Part shown: positions 13,217 through 47,041 of the stretch, in pieces
Layout: each line of letters opens with the position of its first letter
Numbering within the stretch: the stretch's first letter is position 1
Virus record (IMG/VR): IMGVR_UViG_3300028833_000093
Source of the DNA: an uncultured virus (IMG/VR IMGVR_UViG_3300028833_000093)
Lineage: Duplodnaviria; Heunggongvirae; Uroviricota; Caudoviricetes
Length of the DNA: 55,302 nucleotides
Reading direction: 5' to 3' (one strand)
Program-made: the position numbers and the translations under genes
The notes under the pieces: generated by a model
What the model saw: only the letters and a program-made list of their open reading frames with translations
What the model was told of the DNA's origin: nothing
Databases searched by the model: none

Positions 13217-13301
13217 CGATTGCAATTTGAATAGATAATAGGGATCCAGTCTATTCACACAAGAGCTAATATGCAGGCTTAGAAGATTTAGGCTCTTACA
13301 T

Positions 13302-13378
13302 TGGGTCGTATCCCCTCAAGCTTATACCTTGTAGAAAGGGTAGTCGGTTGCACGTGGGTTCAAATCCCTCCGGCCCAA
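13302..13378 (+). ncRNA. Non-canonical tRNA-like RNA (TAT anticodon, no D-arm)
   Basis: tgggtcg/cggccca acceptor; ccct-caag-cttatac-cttg-tagaa-aggg extended arm; GGTTCAAATCC. Confidence 0.65.
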
Positions 13379-13385
13379 CAATTAT

Positions 13386-13598: not shown

Positions 13599-13729
13599 TG
13601 CGACGTAGCTCAGTTGGTAGAGCACTTAAAACAAATTCAATCGCTTGTTACGCTAAAAGGCTGTTGTATGATTAGAATTTCATCGGTATGTTAAACCAGT
13701 GGTCGTTGGTTCGAGTCCAGCCGTCGCAG
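13599..13729 (+). ncRNA. tRNA-shaped RNA carrying a permuted Y-RNA-like (Ro60-binding-type) stem, copy 1
   Basis: Canonical acceptor, D and T arms; insert aaattc-aatc-gcttgttac-gctaaaaggc-tgttgtat-gatt-a-gaattt-catc then ggt-atgttaa-acc. Confidence 0.75.
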
Positions 13730-13747
13730 CAAATTATGTCTTAGCTT

Positions 13748-13837: not shown

Positions 13838-13969
13838 AGAGAGATAGTTTAATTGGTAAAATGCGAACAAGTATATCCAATCGCTTGTTACGCTAAAATG
13901 GCTGTTGTATGATTAGGATTTCATCGTCATTCCAAGACCGTGTTGTTGGTTCGAGTCCAGCTCTCTCTG
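13838..13969 (+). ncRNA. tRNA-shaped RNA carrying a permuted Y-RNA-like stem, copy 2
   Basis: agagaga/tctctct acceptor; ~48-nt core nearly identical to copy 1 with compensatory atcc/ggat; gtc-attccaa-gac. Confidence 0.75.
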
Positions 13970-13997
13970 CAAAATTATTCGATGTTTGATTAAAATT

Positions 13998-14070
13998 GGT
14001 CCGCTAGCTCAATTGGTAGAGCACCGCCCTTTTAAGGCGGGGGTTCCGGGTTCGATCCCCGGGCGGGCCA
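13998..14070 (+). tRNA. tRNA-Lys(TTT)
   Basis: ccgcc-cttttaa-ggcgg. Confidence 0.95.
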
Positions 14071-14072
14071 CT

Positions 14073-14258
14073 CGCGAATTGGTGTAATAAACATAAGAAC
14101 CTACCGGAAAAGTAACTTCGGTTCTGGTCCTGACTATCCGAAATGGTTGTGTAGTGTACAATACATAGCCCGAGTAGGAAACGGGTTGGTAGTGTGTACG
14201 TACACAGCACGGCACCCTGATATGGTGTTAGTTACGTGGAAGTCGTAGTTCGCAACCA
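14073..14258 (+). ncRNA. tRNA-Ile(GAT)-like RNA with ~120-nt structured D-loop insertion
   Basis: cgcgaat/gttcgca + A-CCA; D stem gtgt(14082)/gcac(14207); gcacc-ctgatat-ggtgt; tacg-tggaagt-cgta. Confidence 0.65.
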
Positions 14259-14265
14259 AAAATTT

Positions 14266-14846: not shown

Positions 14847-14922
14847 GGTGTTCGTGGTGGAGCGGTCTAACACGCCAGATTGTGGTTCTGGTATATCGCA
14901 GGTTCGAATCCTGTCGAACACC
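14847..14922 (+). tRNA. tRNA-His(GTG)
   Basis: ccaga-ttgtggt-tctgg; G-1:C73. Confidence 0.93.
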
Positions 14923-15292: not shown

Positions 15293-15623
15293 AATATAAA
15301 GACAAGCTATTGTTCATAGATATCCAGGTAGTTGGTAAGGATTGAAGAATAGAACTTCAAACACTTCGCTAATTTGCTTGAAATAGAGCACATGGAATAT
15401 CGAATTGTTACCGGCGTAACATGAACCGGGAGTCGTAAGGAACATAGCCCGAAGTCAACAAAACGAGAGTTTGACGCAATTAAGCACGTCACCGTACGGA
15501 TAGCACAATTGCCTCTCAATAACGCAAACTGGACAAGTGTAACCAGATAGCTGCCGGATATTAGTCTATTCAATGATATCCGTCTCAGAGCACTTCGGCG
15601 AACCTCTAGACTTGTCTTATATT
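15293..15623 (+). ncRNA. Unassigned ~330-nt structured ncRNA
   Basis: Ends pair (atataaagacaag/cttgtcttatat); inner gatatccaggtagtt/agctgccggatatt; no plus-strand ORF. Confidence 0.6.
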
Positions 15624-15626
15624 TTT

Positions 15627-15960: not shown

Positions 15961-16060
15961 TGTGGTGGAGTGAAACGGATATTGAGTTTTGTAACTATCA
16001 CTCAGAAATCATTGGAGGCCCATAACCTCCAGATAGTGGGTTCGACTCCCACGGCCGCAA
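15961..16060 (+). tRNA. tRNA-Met(CAT) with extra hairpin in the D-loop
   Basis: ggagg-cccataa-cctcc; tgagt...actca insertion between D-stem strands gtga/tcat. Confidence 0.75.
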
Positions 16061-16174
16061 CTAAATAACTATTATAAATATATAAGACAATGAAACGAAA
16101 ACATCTTAAGCATATTGATTAAAACTTTGATAGCACTGCATTTTATGCTATCAAGGAGTACACAAAAATAAAAA

Positions 16175-16328: not shown

Positions 16329-16358
16329 CAAAAAATGAACATTGAAATAATTAAATAT

Positions 16359-16433
16359 GGAGCGGTAGCGCAGTTGGTCAGTTCGCGGCGGACTGAAAAT
16401 CCGTAGATGGTGGTTCGATTCCACCCCGCTCCA
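16359..16433 (+). tRNA. tRNA-Phe(GAA)
   Basis: gcgga-ctgaaaa-tccgt. Confidence 0.92.
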
Positions 16434-16542
16434 CGTGAAAAGCTGTAGAGTATGATTTGACAGTAGTCCTCTTAATTCAGCAACCTTGTTAGTACTGCAG
16501 TATTAAGAAAACACTAATAAGGACAAAAGGAAACTGGTTATT

Positions 16543-16677
16543 GGCGCAGTGGTGAAATTAAAAAACGTCTTAATCGTCATTTCTGCAAACCACTTGCTAG
16601 CGTTAGATTAGGAATACATCGGAAAACACACATTTTTATGGAAAATGAGATTACAAGTTCGACTCTTGTCTGCGCCA
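16543..16677 (+). ncRNA. tRNA(ATG)-like RNA with a Y-RNA-like stem inserted in the D-loop
   Basis: ggcgcag/ctgcgcc; cattt-ttatgga-aaatg; acaag-ttcgact-cttgt; insert cttaatc-gtcatttct-gc...gc-tagcgtta-gattagg-aatacatcg. Confidence 0.65.
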
Positions 16678-16799
16678 CACATCTTTGCAATTTTGTCTCG
16701 TCCCGACGGGCACAACGGGCGTAAGAAGTTAGCACTACTACATCATCCGGAGAGCGGAGCAAGATATAACTTCGGCAAGTACGTAAAGCTTGCAGCCAT

Positions 16800-16871
16800 G
16801 CCGAGATAGTACAACGGTTAGTACAGTCGTCTCATACGCGATGGATGGTAGTTCGATTCTATCTCTCGGTA
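16800..16871 (+). tRNA. tRNA(CAT), Met or Ile2
   Basis: gtcgt-ctcatac-gcgat. Confidence 0.85.
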
Positions 16872-17073
16872 CAAGAAAAATCTCTTTGCGACTTGCATGA
16901 TACGAGTGTACATGAAACATGCAAGTAAAGAAATCAAAAATGATTATAAATAAGTTAGTGGTGAATTTTATAATAAAAAACAGCAAATGAGAGATTTCGG
17001 GTACGCTATACGCAATGTTACAACGGCGGTTGAACAAGTGCAATGATGAGTTGCAAATCATCTTAGCGAAAAA

Positions 17074-25391: not shown

Positions 25392-25473
25392 ACTCCTGTG
25401 CTGGAATTGGTAGACAGGCTAGATTAAGGATCTAGTGCCGTAAGGCGTGTGGGTTCGAGTCCCACCAGGAGTA
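25392..25473 (+). tRNA. tRNA-Leu(AAG)
   Basis: ctaga-ttaagga-tctag, long variable arm. Confidence 0.92.
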
Positions 25474-25478
25474 CATAC

Positions 25479-31871: not shown

Positions 31872-32043
31872 GAAAAAGTCAATAGTGTGTGACTGTGTTA
31901 CTTCGATAAACATGAATTGATCTTAAGAAATGTGAAACAAGAACCAGTCCGTCTACTGAATACTACTGGTAACCACCGAACAATCGGCCCCAGTTGTATT
32001 GAAAAGACAAAAACAACACGATCCAGTGTTCTTTGACTTTTTC
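31872..32043 (+). ncRNA. Putative Y RNA 1
   Basis: gaaaaagtcaa/ttgactttttc closing stem; tagtgtg...gttacttcg 5' motif; cagtgttct 3' motif; upstream of Ro60. Confidence 0.6.
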
Positions 32044-32058
32044 TTTTTTGAATATTAA

Positions 32059-32162
32059 AAATACATGGCGACGAGAACGGGTTTCATCGGTTATTTTAAG
32101 TTCGACTCTTAATTTTTCTGCCCTAAGGAAAAAATACACCCTCCTCATTTATTCCTGTATTT
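32059..32162 (+). ncRNA. Putative Y RNA 2 (YrlA-like, with T-arm)
   Basis: aaataca/tgtattt; ggcgacgag...gtttcatcg; ttaag-ttcgact-cttaa T-arm; catttattcc. Confidence 0.65.
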
Positions 32163-32171
32163 GCACTATAT

Positions 32172-32254
32172 ATTACTTGGTGAAGGTATGACATACTTCG
32201 ATAATTACAGTTTTCAATCATCAATAGCTTCTGTCTACCGCTTGTTCCAGTAAT
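32172..32254 (+). ncRNA. Putative Y RNA 3
   Basis: attact/agtaat; ggtgaag-gtatgaca-tacttcg ... tgtctacc-gcttgttcc. Confidence 0.68.
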
Positions 32255-32262
32255 CTAATTTC

Positions 32263-32359: not shown

Positions 32360-33769
32360 ATGAGTAAAGTAAATCCAACAGTAAAGAATTCTTCAATGGA
32401 GAAGGACATTCGTTTGGCGGGCGGCGCTGGACTTCGTGCCGCAAAACAATCTAACATTCAACAACTTCGTCGTATGACTCTTGCCAACTTGCTTTGGGAG
32501 GATTGTGCATATGTTGACGGAAAGTCTTTGGCAAAAGAAATCGCTCGTTTGATTCCTTTGTGTGCTGCAAAAGATGTAGCTAATTTGGCTCTGGAATGCC
32601 GTTTGGTACAAAAACTCCGTCATACACCTTTGTATATCGCATCTGAGATGTGCAAATATCCCGAGCATCGTGCATTGGTGGGTGATTTACTTCCAAAGAT
32701 AATCACTCGTGCCGATATGATTACCGACTTCTTGGCAATCTATTGGAAAGAGGGTAAGCGTCCACTGGCTAACCAAGCAAAACGCGGTTTGGCTGCTGCA
32801 TTCCATAACTTTGATGAATACCAATTCGCAAAGTACGACCGTGATGCCGAGATTAAACTTCGAGACGTAATGTTCTTGTGTCACCCAAAGGCAACTGATG
32901 AGCAAGAGCAAGAGTTGTTTAACAAAATCGCTGAACGCAATCTTGCTGTTCCTGATACATGGGAGGTTGCACTCTCTGCTGGTGCCGACAAGAAGGAGAC
33001 ATGGACTCGTCTCATCAACACTCACAAGATTGGTGGTATGGCGATGCTTCGTAATATCTCTAATATGATGAAAGCAGATGTAGACCGTAAGGTTATCACA
33101 GAGGGAATCAAAAACCTTCGTGGTGCAATGCTTTTGCCTCTTGACTACTTGAAGGCTGCTCGTATGTGTCCTCAATTTGAGCGTGAAATCGAAGACAAGA
33201 TGCTTGATTCTTACAAGAGTTTACCAAAACTTCCGGGTAAGACATTGTTTATTGTTGACGTTTCTGGTTCAATGGGTTCAGTAACCTCTAGTGGTACTTC
33301 ATTTACTCGTCTTGACCAAGCATGTGCAATGGCAATGTTGGCCGCAAACCAATGCGAAGACTACGAACTTGTTACAACAGCCGGTGATGACTGGGCTAGT
33401 AAGGGAGCACACGAGTGGATTCAATATCCTAAGAAAGGCTTCGGTCTTGCTCAACAAATCTACGATACAAAACGCAATATTGGGGAAGGAGGTATCTTTA
33501 CTCGTCAAGTGCTCGAGTGGTCAAAGAAAAAGTTCGCAGGTGAGGTATTCGACCGTATCATCATCTTCTCTGACTCACAAGACTGTGACCGAGTAGATAA
33601 GACTCCTCATCCATTCGGCATCAACAACTATATCTGTGACGTATCAGCACATCAACATGGTGTAAACTATCGTGGTTGTTGGACTGCTGAAATCAGTGGT
33701 TGGTCAGAGCACTTTATCACATATATTGCTGCTTTGGAAGGTCTTGAGAACACCTTTAACGAAGAGTAA
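32360..33769 (+). CDS. TROVE-domain Ro60/Rsr RNA-binding protein with vWA domain
   Basis: KLRHTP, FDEYQFAKYD, LRDVMFLCHPK, TWEVALSA, GMAMLRNI, MIDAS VDVSGSM, IIFSDSQ. Confidence 0.93.
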   Translation: MSKVNPTVKNSSMEKDIRLAGGAGLRAAKQSNIQQLRRMTLANLLWEDCAYVDGKSLAKEIARLIPLCAAKDVANLALECRLVQKLRHTPLYIASEMCKYPEHRALVGDLLPKIITRADMITDFLAIYWKEGKRPLANQAKRGLAAAFHNFDEYQFAKYDRDAEIKLRDVMFLCHPKATDEQEQELFNKIAERNLAVPDTWEVALSAGADKKETWTRLINTHKIGGMAMLRNISNMMKADVDRKVITEGIKNLRGAMLLPLDYLKAARMCPQFEREIEDKMLDSYKSLPKLPGKTLFIVDVSGSMGSVTSSGTSFTRLDQACAMAMLAANQCEDYELVTTAGDDWASKGAHEWIQYPKKGFGLAQQIYDTKRNIGEGGIFTRQVLEWSKKKFAGEVFDRIIIFSDSQDCDRVDKTPHPFGINNYICDVSAHQHGVNYRGCWTAEISGWSEHFITYIAALEGLENTFNEE

Positions 33770-45415: not shown

Positions 45416-45601
45416 ATGACTTATTTAGATTTAACACCCGGAGAATTAGACCGACTGTCTGAATTCCATAAAGAACACCCAAAAAACGCCTTACGTGTAT
45501 ATTCAGATGAGGTAATAAGCTTTGAAGGAAAAACTTATCGTAAACGCGTAACCGATCTTTGTGGTCATGAAACAGATATTGCTGACCCGACATTTGACTA
45601 A
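45416..45601 (+). CDS. Hypothetical protein
   Basis: Start taken at MTYLDL downstream of promoter motif 45357-45384. Confidence 0.55.
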   Translation: MTYLDLTPGELDRLSEFHKEHPKNALRVYSDEVISFEGKTYRKRVTDLCGHETDIADPTFD

Positions 45602-46164
45602 TGAAAATAATCTTCTTAGATATTGACGGTGTATTAAATCACGAAGAATGGTATACATCCGGTAGAGCGCATGAGGCATATGAAGCTACGGGAAAAACAG
45701 ATAATAAAGCATACAATTTCGACCCGGATTCTTGGAAGTGGATTCAAAAACTTATTGATGAAACCGGTGCAAAAATTGTGCTTTCATCTTCATGGCGTTG
45801 GTATGACTTACAAGCAACCATTGAAGAATATAAAAATACTGCATTTAAGCCGATTATTGACAATCTTGTGGGTGTTACACCTGGAACAATGAGTCGTAAT
45901 AGAGGACAAGAAATAAATCGGTTTTTTGATATTGTAAATGGAAATATCACACAAAATCTTCCACAAGCTATTGAATGGCTGAAACAACACCCACTTGAAA
46001 CATTGAGTGCAACCGGTGAAAAGATTGACCAATATGTTATCTTTGATGATAATGCCGATATGACAAAAGAGCAAAAGAAACATTTAGTACAAGTAGATAG
46101 TTGGGTAGGAATACAAGAAAAAGATTATATAAAAGCTAAAAAGATATTAAATAATGAAGACTAA
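45601..46164 (+). CDS. HAD-domain protein (Swiss-Army-Knife RNA-repair HAD type)
   Basis: IFLDIDGVLN, IVLSSSWR, RGQEI, YVIFDD. Confidence 0.8.
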   Translation: MKIIFLDIDGVLNHEEWYTSGRAHEAYEATGKTDNKAYNFDPDSWKWIQKLIDETGAKIVLSSSWRWYDLQATIEEYKNTAFKPIIDNLVGVTPGTMSRNRGQEINRFFDIVNGNITQNLPQAIEWLKQHPLETLSATGEKIDQYVIFDDNADMTKEQKKHLVQVDSWVGIQEKDYIKAKKILNNED

Positions 46165-47041
46165 CAAAATTATCGTTTTACAAGGTTGTCCTTGTTCGGG
46201 AAAATCAACTTACGCACAAAACGTAAAAGATGAGCATACTGTTGTAGTAAACTTAGATACCATCCGAATTGAGTTGGGTGGGGGTAAATTTTCTTTTAAC
46301 AATGAGGACAAAGCATTAGCTATAGAAGAGAAAATGATTCGAGATGCAATCGCTAACGGACAAGATGCAATGATTGATGCTACAAACCTAAATCCGAAAA
46401 AGATTGCAAAATGGAAAGAATTGGCAGAAGAGTTAGATTGTCCGATTGAGTTTAAGATGTTCTATATACCTTTCGCGGAAGCAATGAAACGAAGCAAAGC
46501 TCGTAAAGATGCTGGCGGATTGTATATTGACAAGAAAACTATGACTGGTTTTTACAAGCGCTATTTTCCAGAAGAATTCAAAGATGAGTTAACCGATAAG
46601 CGAGTTATTCGTGAACCTAATGGAGCTCTTCCTAATTGTGTGATTTGTGATTTAGATGCAACACTCGCATTGCACCAAGGTCGTGAACCATTTGATTGGT
46701 CTTTAATTGAAACAGATAAGATTGATACTCGTCTAAGATATTTATTGAATTGTTTTATGGCGGATGGAATTCCTGTAATGTTTGTTACAGGTCGCAATAA
46801 CTCAGCACGTCAAGCTACACTAGATTGGTTGAATAAAAATCTAATGTTCAAAGAGTGGAAGTTATTCACTCGAGATGACCGAGACTTTTCACACGGTGAT
46901 GATTACAAAGAGAAAGTATATCACGAACAGATTGAAGGTAAATACAATGTGCTTTGTGTATTCGAAGACAGCAACAAATGTGTAAAACGTTGGAGAGAAC
47001 TTGGATTACTCACATGTCAAGTGGAAAATAACGATTACTAA
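46154..47041 (+). CDS. pseT: Polynucleotide 5'-kinase/3'-phosphatase (T4 PseT-like)
   Basis: P-loop GCPCSGKST, IDATNL; HAD ICDLDATL, VTGR, FED, WRELGL. Confidence 0.85.
   Translation: MKTNKIIVLQGCPCSGKSTYAQNVKDEHTVVVNLDTIRIELGGGKFSFNNEDKALAIEEKMIRDAIANGQDAMIDATNLNPKKIAKWKELAEELDCPIEFKMFYIPFAEAMKRSKARKDAGGLYIDKKTMTGFYKRYFPEEFKDELTDKRVIREPNGALPNCVICDLDATLALHQGREPFDWSLIETDKIDTRLRYLLNCFMADGIPVMFVTGRNNSARQATLDWLNKNLMFKEWKLFTRDDRDFSHGDDYKEKVYHEQIEGKYNVLCVFEDSNKCVKRWRELGLLTCQVENNDY

Follow-up and report, generated by a model that had tools for sequence, protein, structure and literature searches.

A tRNA scaffold carrying a putative Ro60-docking stem in its D loop in an uncultured myophage

Introduction

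The stretch of DNA analysed here (the window; 55,302 nucleotides from an uncultured virus, IMG/VR IMGVR_UViG_3300028833_000093) contains an array of 32 tRNAs according to ARAGORN. It also contains, at 16543-16680 on the plus strand, a unit (unit C) in which a full tRNA scaffold in native order holds a Y RNA-like module in its D loop. Is this unit the gene of a tRNA with an intron, of a decoding tRNA with an additional branch, or of a Y RNA that has kept the shape of a tRNA?

Y RNAs bind the Ro60 orthologue Rsr via a stem of this kind (PMC4201824). According to Chen et al. 2014 (PMC4201824), a YrlA RNA is defined by its GNCGAAN0-1G motif, by a tRNA domain that is permuted and by lying close to rsr, and the list in that paper comprises 22 phages, none of them from Bacteroidetes. 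A phage Ro60 binds its own Y-like RNAs and the host PNPase (PMC12135203), TROVE proteins with tRNA-like partners occur in some jumbo phages (PMC7824862), and the TROVE gene of phage crAss001 is an early gene (PMC8375218, PMC10136315). The effector of YrlA is described as unknown, with RNA degradation or repair favoured (preprint 10.1101/312249), and the purpose and tRNA origin of the tRNA-like half of bacterial Y RNAs are stated as open (PMC4201824; 10.1101/312249).

Architecture of unit C

All arms of a tRNA are found in unit C. The acceptor stem (16543-16549/16670-16676) forms seven of seven pairs, the D stem (16552-16554/16627-16629) has three pairs in a Leu-type D arm, and the five-pair anticodon stem (16631-16635/16643-16647) closes a 7-nt loop with ATG at 16638-16640. 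The T arm spans 16653-16669, A73 is located at 16677, and CCA is not encoded. Positions 17 and 18 of the D loop are separated by the insert of 61 nt (16560-16620, with limits that may be off by a few bases), leaving G18 and G19 at 16621-16622 just behind it. A preliminary description of this DNA had reported an intact acceptor, anticodon arm and T arm and a module inside the D loop of a tRNA with an ATG anticodon, and all of these are present in the sequence.

The insert is composed of an A-rich linker, an eight-pair outer stem (16568-16575/16606-16613), a 7x5 internal loop, a bulged-U helix, a closing hairpin and a conserved unpaired tail (16614-16620). In the inner helix, two outer pairs (16583-16584/16599-16600), which have a probability of only ~0.36, are followed by the bulged U at 16598 and by four further pairs (16585-16588/16594-16597). 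The insert is predicted to be an Rsr-docking stem. ARAGORN misses unit C and calls tRNA-His(atg) after in silico removal of the insert. Compared with shuffled sequences, the unit as a whole folds with only a slightly better energy (z -2.0, 8/200), and no promoter-like site stood out near it.

The window contains rsr, linear Y-like RNAs and two sister units

The window has a G+C content of 35.5% and carries genes of large myophages, including those for tail sheath, prohead protease, anaerobic ribonucleotide reductase and NAD ligase. Its best DNA matches are to sheep-gut runs, from which it may derive, and the host probably belongs to the Bacteroidales, judging from relatives such as crAss001. 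The predicted partner of unit C is encoded by rsr at 32360-33769 on the plus strand, a 469-aa Ro60/TROVE orthologue (TROVE-vWA; Pfam TROVE, E 2.8e-13). Among solved structures, this protein best matches phage Ro60 (9L5Y/9KOP), which it covers full-length (residues 24-460, E 8e-13), and it is 69% identical to Gp96, the TROVE protein of the Bacteroides phage crAss001.

Three candidate RNAs are located upstream of rsr, all on the plus strand. The first, directly upstream at 32172-32256, is predicted to be a linear Y-like RNA with a terminal bulged-U stem; its 3' internal-loop strand is the same as in the sister units A and B described below, and its folding energy is no better than that of shuffles. 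The second predicted linear Y-like RNA lies at 31875-31962, and the weakest of the three candidates, at 32060-32128, has the 5' module strand followed by a T-arm hairpin, with no clear 3' strand. An Rfam scan upstream of rsr in the window returned nothing useful. As context only, RNA end-healing genes are found at 45601-47041 on the plus strand and encode a HAD_SAK_2 phosphatase (45601-46164) and a polynucleotide kinase/phosphatase (46154-47041).

Two sister units precede unit C on the same strand. Unit A (13599-13732) has a tRNA-Asn-like scaffold (GTT, U1-A72, G73) with the module at 13627-13684, and is related to a unit of the crAss-like locus L028 (blastn E 2e-11). Unit B (13838-13971) has a tRNA scaffold with a TCC anticodon, a non-Gly acceptor end and the module at 13866-13925. 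In both, the module is located in the anticodon stem, between positions 28 and 29, and the anticodon loops (GTT, TCC) are kept.

Several other stretches near these units look structured. Positions 15300-15625 comprise ~320 bases with complementary ends and no Rfam match, possibly another structured RNA; a sequence similar to it (~91% identity) reaches a contig depth of 3541 in a sheep-gut RNA library and is thus very abundant there. At 15961-16062, ARAGORN missed an initiator-tRNA-like gene (CAT) with a ~30-base D-loop hairpin unrelated to the Y module. ARAGORN also gives no call for an odd tRNA-like unit at 13300-13381 (TAT loop, rearranged D arm), or for a longer structured-looking unit between tRNAs at 14060-14260.

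Unit C belongs to the module family as a divergent copy

The preliminary description had aligned a core of unit C with the two RNAs at 13.6 and 13.8 kb. A pattern of this core occurs three times in the window, exactly at the three units. Global alignment of the inserts against 5000 dinucleotide shuffles supports the likeness in both comparisons: the score of C with A was matched by 12/5000 shuffles and that of C with B by 0/5000.

Two profiles, both home-made and with allowed element lengths that were fixed after the inserts had been seen, recover unit C. In the profile built only from 11 linear RNAs beside chromosomal rsr genes, C scores 30.2, a value reached by 0/1000 shuffles, and ranks first of 813 anchored candidates on both window strands, followed by B (28.5), A (24.3) and the next candidate (15.0). 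In the pair-and-position profile from 26 non-window phage modules, C scores 23.5 against -22.8 +/- 5.9 for shuffles (0/400 as high). The covariance models give C scores that are not significant, 12.6 bits for the crAss-only model (E 1.3 in the window) and 10.7 bits for the broader model R2 (E 4.9 in the window), while R2 gives 26.5 bits (E 0.0014) for unit A and 20.1 bits (E 0.039) for unit B.

On the basis of the profile tests and the shared insertion site, we regard the homology of unit C with the Y-like module family as established, with C as a divergent copy. Because the covariance models miss significance for it, C ranks as the copy that has diverged furthest, and it may be in decay.

The module recurs in tRNAs of crAss-like and other phages

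The family was found via the Rsr protein, relatives of which are held by 47 viral loci. Behind rsr in the crAss-like loci the module is repeated in three forms: free, embedded in a tRNA's anticodon stem, or embedded in its D loop. The covariance model finds tRNA-embedded units in 46/47 crAss-like loci, which are one closely related group. In these homologues the distance behind rsr is mostly 0.1-1 kb, in some up to 6.8 kb. The RNA cassette matches 24 of 50,697 phage records, and these are the same 24 that have Rsr at 60-80% identity; the co-occurrence of cassette and Rsr in crAss-like phages represents one inherited cassette, not independent events.

The family alignment (MAFFT) contains 22 non-redundant modules from 15 of the 47 loci. 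The modules share a nine-pair stem and an internal loop, followed by two pairs, a bulged U that never varies and three further pairs, and 94% of 304 alignment cells are paired. Covariation is 0.625 against 0.189 in shuffled and at most 0.144 in slid controls, a value from 22 modules that their relatedness can inflate. The bulged U of the predicted structure is found in 26/26 aligned modules, flanked on both sides by covarying pairs, and is present in C. Unit C is collinear with the D-loop homologues along its whole length in the alignment, and several of them start like C. The earlier view of a portable module at different positions of a tRNA is upheld, since the same stem occurs free in linear RNAs, in the anticodon stem and at two D-loop sites.

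In crAss001 (NC_049977.1, locus L119), at least two tRNA-embedded and further free modules lie behind the TROVE gene at 96197-96725, all of them unannotated, with the embedded units at 96.2-96.6 kb; a band-7/SPFH gene lies ~1.6 kb from this array.

The D-loop and anticodon-stem forms are also found by pattern and model searches in non-crAss phages (G003, G006-G010, G411), and tRNA arrays of jumbo phages contain both. A TROVE/Rsr gene is present in G003 (98% complete) and G007; none was found in the other five of these seven records (G006, G008, G009, G010 and G411, 14-83% complete), of which G006 has the same RNAs as G003. In G003, a 376-kb phage, additional free module halves lie beside two embedded units in the array at 322-362 kb (L136-L137).

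Searches with exact sequence were largely blind to the family. Exact patterns from the three window copies gave 0 and 6 viral matches, none in a tRNA, an exact-pattern scan of metagenomes gave 60 matches, 0/60 with a tRNA, and a pattern from the 3' half of unit C gave none. In blastn of C and of A and B together against phages, only chance or ordinary tRNA-Asn matches were returned. The module is present in 0/23 called tRNAs of a related myophage (L048/G001, 38% complete), which does have rsr and, upstream, a linear candidate. In crAssphage cr53_1, where TROVE is also absent, model R2 finds no closed-loop form, a weak control of one genome. In a later RNA-pattern scan, 103/109 matches lay outside tRNA scaffolds; two of the remaining six (L244 and L295) were considered as closed-loop tRNAs and rejected, being junctions between tandem YrlA-ordered units.

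The repeated modules raise the possibility that unit C is a by-product of recombination among them, or a decaying copy, and that only the linear RNAs adjacent to rsr matter. Chimeras and deletions at the shared tail do occur. At ~5060-5230 of L014, an anticodon-stem-type 5' half and a D-loop-type 3' half are fused at the module tail, and the crAss-like locus L010 (3880-4100) has kept rsr and lost both embedded units; these structures reflect either recombination between repeats or assembly collapse. In addition, C is the copy that diverges most. Against a by-product, the D-loop form is kept at the same insertion site in crAss-like and jumbo phages with compensatory changes, and every stem is kept in C. 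Moreover, a pig-gut DNA contig of 1072 nt aligns with the window only over 16540-16678 (5 substitutions, 2 gaps), and this relative keeps the whole of unit C including the insert while the flanks change. We therefore consider a by-product improbable.

Linear and YrlA-ordered relatives flank chromosomal rsr genes

Among 401 genomes of the order to which G005 belongs, 6 contain Rsr at E 1e-20 or better. The linear module is found in 5/6 of these chromosomal rsr loci, with its strands at the RNA ends and a variable payload between them, and the rsr genes flanked by it are as distant as 37-40% identity. The Bacteroidales-type loci concerned (L221-L224, L122) contain two to four linear Y-like RNAs each, with differing payloads, and just some of these RNAs attain so much as a weak Rfam score. 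Two payloads are tRNA folds in YrlA order, which score 29.3 and 34.9 bits with Rfam YrlA (gathering score 69), and one YrlA-ordered unit precedes what reads as an rtcB-like reading frame. At the place of the GNCGAAN0-1G motif, the chromosomal Bacteroidales units have GCCGTAG or GCTGAAG. Model R2 found no closed-loop form in the five rsr-bearing chromosomes (150 candidates scored in each).

Two further phages, found by RNA pattern alone, contain tandem YrlA-ordered units with 33.6-39.6 bits, and divergent TROVE genes lie within ~2 kb of both arrays. The arrays are located beside these genes at L295 555-1200 and L244 850-1290 (minus strand, reverse-complement count). After the conserved tail, where YrlA has its variable arm, their units possess a short hairpin whose loop resembles that of an anticodon arm. 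Where two tandem units meet, the sequence reads like unit A. Such a resemblance offers a simple route from the YrlA order to the closed-loop form, which may have arisen by duplication and then trimming.

These loci also bear on whether the module docks a different protein or a small molecule, its link to rsr being genomic hitch-hiking. The motif of the module differs from the published Rsr motif, TROVE was not found in the five incomplete records, and the band-7/SPFH gene near the crAss001 array recalls the band-7-associated tRNA-like RNA reported in 10.1101/312249. On the other side, the module flanks chromosomal rsr genes at 37-40% identity and the divergent TROVE genes of two phages, and it takes the place of the Rsr stem in the YrlA-ordered RNAs. 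Another ligand thus appears the least probable of the explanations considered here.

Relation of unit C to known Y RNAs and tRNA-like RNAs

By definition, unit C is not a YrlA, because it has the native tRNA order, a free acceptor end, an anticodon loop and a degenerate motif. YrlA (RF02553; PMC4201824; 10.1101/312249) resembles it in the long stem, which has an internal loop and a bulge and is joined to a tRNA fold, in the link to rsr and possibly in the YUAY-like tail. As described in these sources, YrlA builds the Ro stem from both RNA ends, places the T arm before the D arm, closes the acceptor with a loop and has no anticodon loop. In unit C, by contrast, the ends do not pair into a Ro stem, the stem instead branching off inside the D loop and ending in a hairpin loop; the tRNA domain is not permuted, with an open acceptor and a 7-nt anticodon loop. 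The strict GNCGAAN0-1G motif is absent from units A, B and C, with AGCGTTAG at the equivalent place in C. Unit C is on the same strand as rsr but 15.7 kb away, against ~4 kb for YrlA. At E up to 10, A, B and C have no match to Rfam YrlA (RF02553, threshold 69 bits), whereas the related linear RNAs score 29-40 bits.

Two general features of a Y RNA are found in unit C. It is predicted to have the long stem with internal loop and bulged-pyrimidine helix, and the same genome encodes a Ro60 orthologue (the 469-aa protein of 32360-33769). At the YUAY position after the stem it reads ATAC, the consensus of the family being TTAC. Part for part, units A and B correspond to circularly permuted versions of the YrlA order of the Bacteroidales and phage arrays, and unit C likewise reads as a closed-loop permutation of YrlA, which most likely works like one.

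Other known RNAs share single traits. Yrn1 of Deinococcus radiodurans (PMC4201824) is a Y RNA with a tRNA-like part in native D-anticodon-T order, so a tRNA fold offers more than one point of attachment for the Ro stem; in Yrn1, as described there, this stem is at the acceptor position and the D arm is incomplete, whereas unit C has an intact acceptor and the stem elsewhere. The Ro60 of Thermus phage phiLo, with Yrl1 and Yrl2 (PMC12135203; 9KOP, 9L5Y), is likewise a phage Ro60 with its own Y-like RNAs, but these are described as plain 5'-3' stems bearing a CGAA motif upstream of the gene, and the available text of that paper describes no tRNA scaffold. The RNA known as b7a-tRNA (band-7-associated; 10.1101/312249) is a predicted tRNA-like RNA of RNA-repair loci, occasionally beside Rsr. 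According to the description in the preprint, on which this comparison is based, it strongly resembles an authentic tRNA; the available part does not mention an inserted Ro stem.

In the literature consulted, we found no account of a Ro stem in a native-order tRNA or of Y RNAs of crAss-like phages, and a tRNA-like RNA of repair loci may overlap with the present one. Such an RNA was reportedly described in repair loci by Burroughs and Aravind in 2016. In the available part of preprint 10.64898/2026.09.22.753630, neither TROVE nor Y RNA is mentioned.

The insert is very unlikely to be an intron

Removal of the inserts from A and B gives perfect anticodon stems, and ARAGORN then calls Asn and Gly; together with the His call for C, this first suggested a small intron. 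The insert would then be a tiny intron, self-cleaving or removed by an enzyme, and the spliced product a working tRNA-His(AUG). In line with such a reading, each of the inserts of A, B and C ends just before a G, and the phage encodes RNA end-healing enzymes.

Intron-containing tRNA genes with archaeal bulge-helix-bulge introns or group I/II introns are known, and unit C resembles them in having an otherwise complete tRNA that is broken up by an insert at a non-canonical position. It differs in several respects. By inspection, no bulge-helix-bulge or other splice motif is present at the junctions, and no Rfam intron (group I/II) or ribozyme matches. The stretch from module to tRNA varies from 0 to ~8 bases among homologues, and many of their anticodon loops have 5, 6, 8 or 9 bases, so excision would often give no tRNA. 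Since the module also exists as free linear RNAs and sits in several tRNA sites, with variable junctions and loops, the small-intron reading was dropped, and we give it very little probability.

Assembled RNA-library contigs contain the unspliced form. One of them, 781 nt long and from a sheep-gut RNA library, covers 16344-16900 unspliced and with no differences, and unit A is likewise covered in both RNA runs of the same single sample; the libraries may contain DNA, so coverage is no proof of transcription. None of 15 listed joints (of 32) lies at the predicted sites, although contigs cannot show absence and those of a long-insert library would miss a 75-nt tRNA. One joint, 13626-13692, was considered as splicing and rejected: seven other letters lie between, it also occurs in DNA runs, and it stems from another organism's tRNA.

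The anticodon slot varies and decoding is unlikely

Loops and triplets were surveyed in 84 distinct rows (35 anticodon-stem, 39 early-D-loop and 10 late-D-loop; the parse is doubtful for two rows of the late and one of the early D-loop type). Among the early-D-loop rows, 35/39 have a 7-nt loop, with 12 different triplets, and 4/39 an 8-nt loop. One acceptor sequence carries five triplets (GTA, GGT, AGG, TGG, TGT). The most frequent triplet in the 35 anticodon-stem rows is TTT (10), and 15 of these rows lack a 7-nt loop. The triplet of unit C thus reads as a variable slot, and the loop around it mostly retains the geometry of an anticodon loop. Homologues with an identical acceptor stem differ freely in this triplet, so ATG is not conserved as a signal. 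The D-loop homologues nearest to unit C have TTG or GAA in place of ATG.

The G-1:C73 pair is the identity pair of tRNA-His. Unit C has no such pair, with T at -1 and A at 73. The variable slot argues against both decoding and an intron, and with the missing His identity bases it makes decoding unlikely. The preliminary description had proposed a non-decoding role from the rarity of A34 His anticodons in bacteria; such a role is supported for a different reason, the variable triplet, and A34 is not exceptional in these phages (Leu-AAG at 25392-25474 of the window; Thr-AGT at 18243-18316 of the relative L048).

Unit C could nevertheless be a charged, decoding tRNA with a protective Ro60 handle, its A34 reading the frequent CAU codon (CAT 126 versus CAC 45 in 20 window genes). 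It has the seven-pair acceptor and a 7-nt loop with U33 and G37, such loops are kept in 35/39 D-loop-type rows, and both the anticodon and the acceptor end of unit A are of the Asn type. These features have to be set against the absent His pair, the ordinary tRNA-His(GTG) already present at 14848 and the change of anticodons on constant acceptors; moreover, a 61-nt branch with a protein ring at the elbow would hardly fit the ribosome. A decoding role is accordingly improbable, to about the same degree as the by-product. The anticodon-like loop may still be recognised by something, for example by anticodon nucleases. Anticodon nucleases prefer Lys-UUU and similar tRNAs.

Discussion

Unit C is probably a non-decoding, Rsr-bound Y-like RNA of a Bacteroidales-type myophage. 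It would consist of a complete tRNA body with a Ro60(Rsr)-docking stem grafted in the D loop as a closed-loop branch. The sequences themselves establish how the unit is built, that its stem is homologous to that of the Y-like RNAs next to rsr and covaries, that the anticodon is variable and that the phage encodes a full-length Rsr. Such an RNA would be transcribed with the tRNA array and trimmed like a tRNA, and would keep its tRNA elbow, with G18 G19 and the T loop intact. The ring of the phage Rsr would clamp the bulged helix, as in known Y RNAs (PMC4201824; PMC12135203). To the tRNA-handling proteins of host or phage, the Rsr particle would then offer the shape of a whole tRNA, its acceptor end free and its anticodon loop exchangeable. 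A portable Y-stem in a complete tRNA, together with a phage Ro60, thus probably ties the Ro60 ring to a tRNA look-alike.

For the function of an Rsr-bound unit C, two possibilities can be considered. Within a phage set for tRNA protection and RNA repair, the RNA may act as a bait or adaptor that attracts anticodon nucleases of the host or keeps hold of nicked tRNA-like substrates to be healed and ligated; this function is plausible, though its probability stays below even. Somewhat less probable is a classical Y-RNA role, gating Rsr or tethering it to PNPase, in which the tRNA body would be a nuclease-resistant carrier.

YrlA-type Y RNAs and phage Ro60 with its own Y-like RNAs were already known, and the Ro stem in a native-order tRNA appears to be new. 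The family is a natural series in which the Ro stem is constant while its attachment point and the anticodon vary, so the two functions can be separated. In crAss001, a cultured human-gut phage with a cultured host, the RNAs are unannotated behind an early-expressed TROVE gene, which makes their binding, processing, charging and any anti-defence role directly testable. ARAGORN and Rfam miss these RNAs, and phage tRNA arrays consequently hide a class of genes.

More tentatively, Bacteroidales gut phages including crAss001 may build a panel of Ro60 particles by moving one docking stem around a complete tRNA, from the anticodon stem to two D-loop sites and the classical permuted form, with the anticodon loop swapped under selection. 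Against host defences that cut tRNA, such particles might act as armoured tRNA decoys or as sensors. They might at the same time be living intermediates, in which case the variable arm of YrlA would be a relic anticodon arm, and tandem duplication would interconvert Y RNAs and tRNAs.
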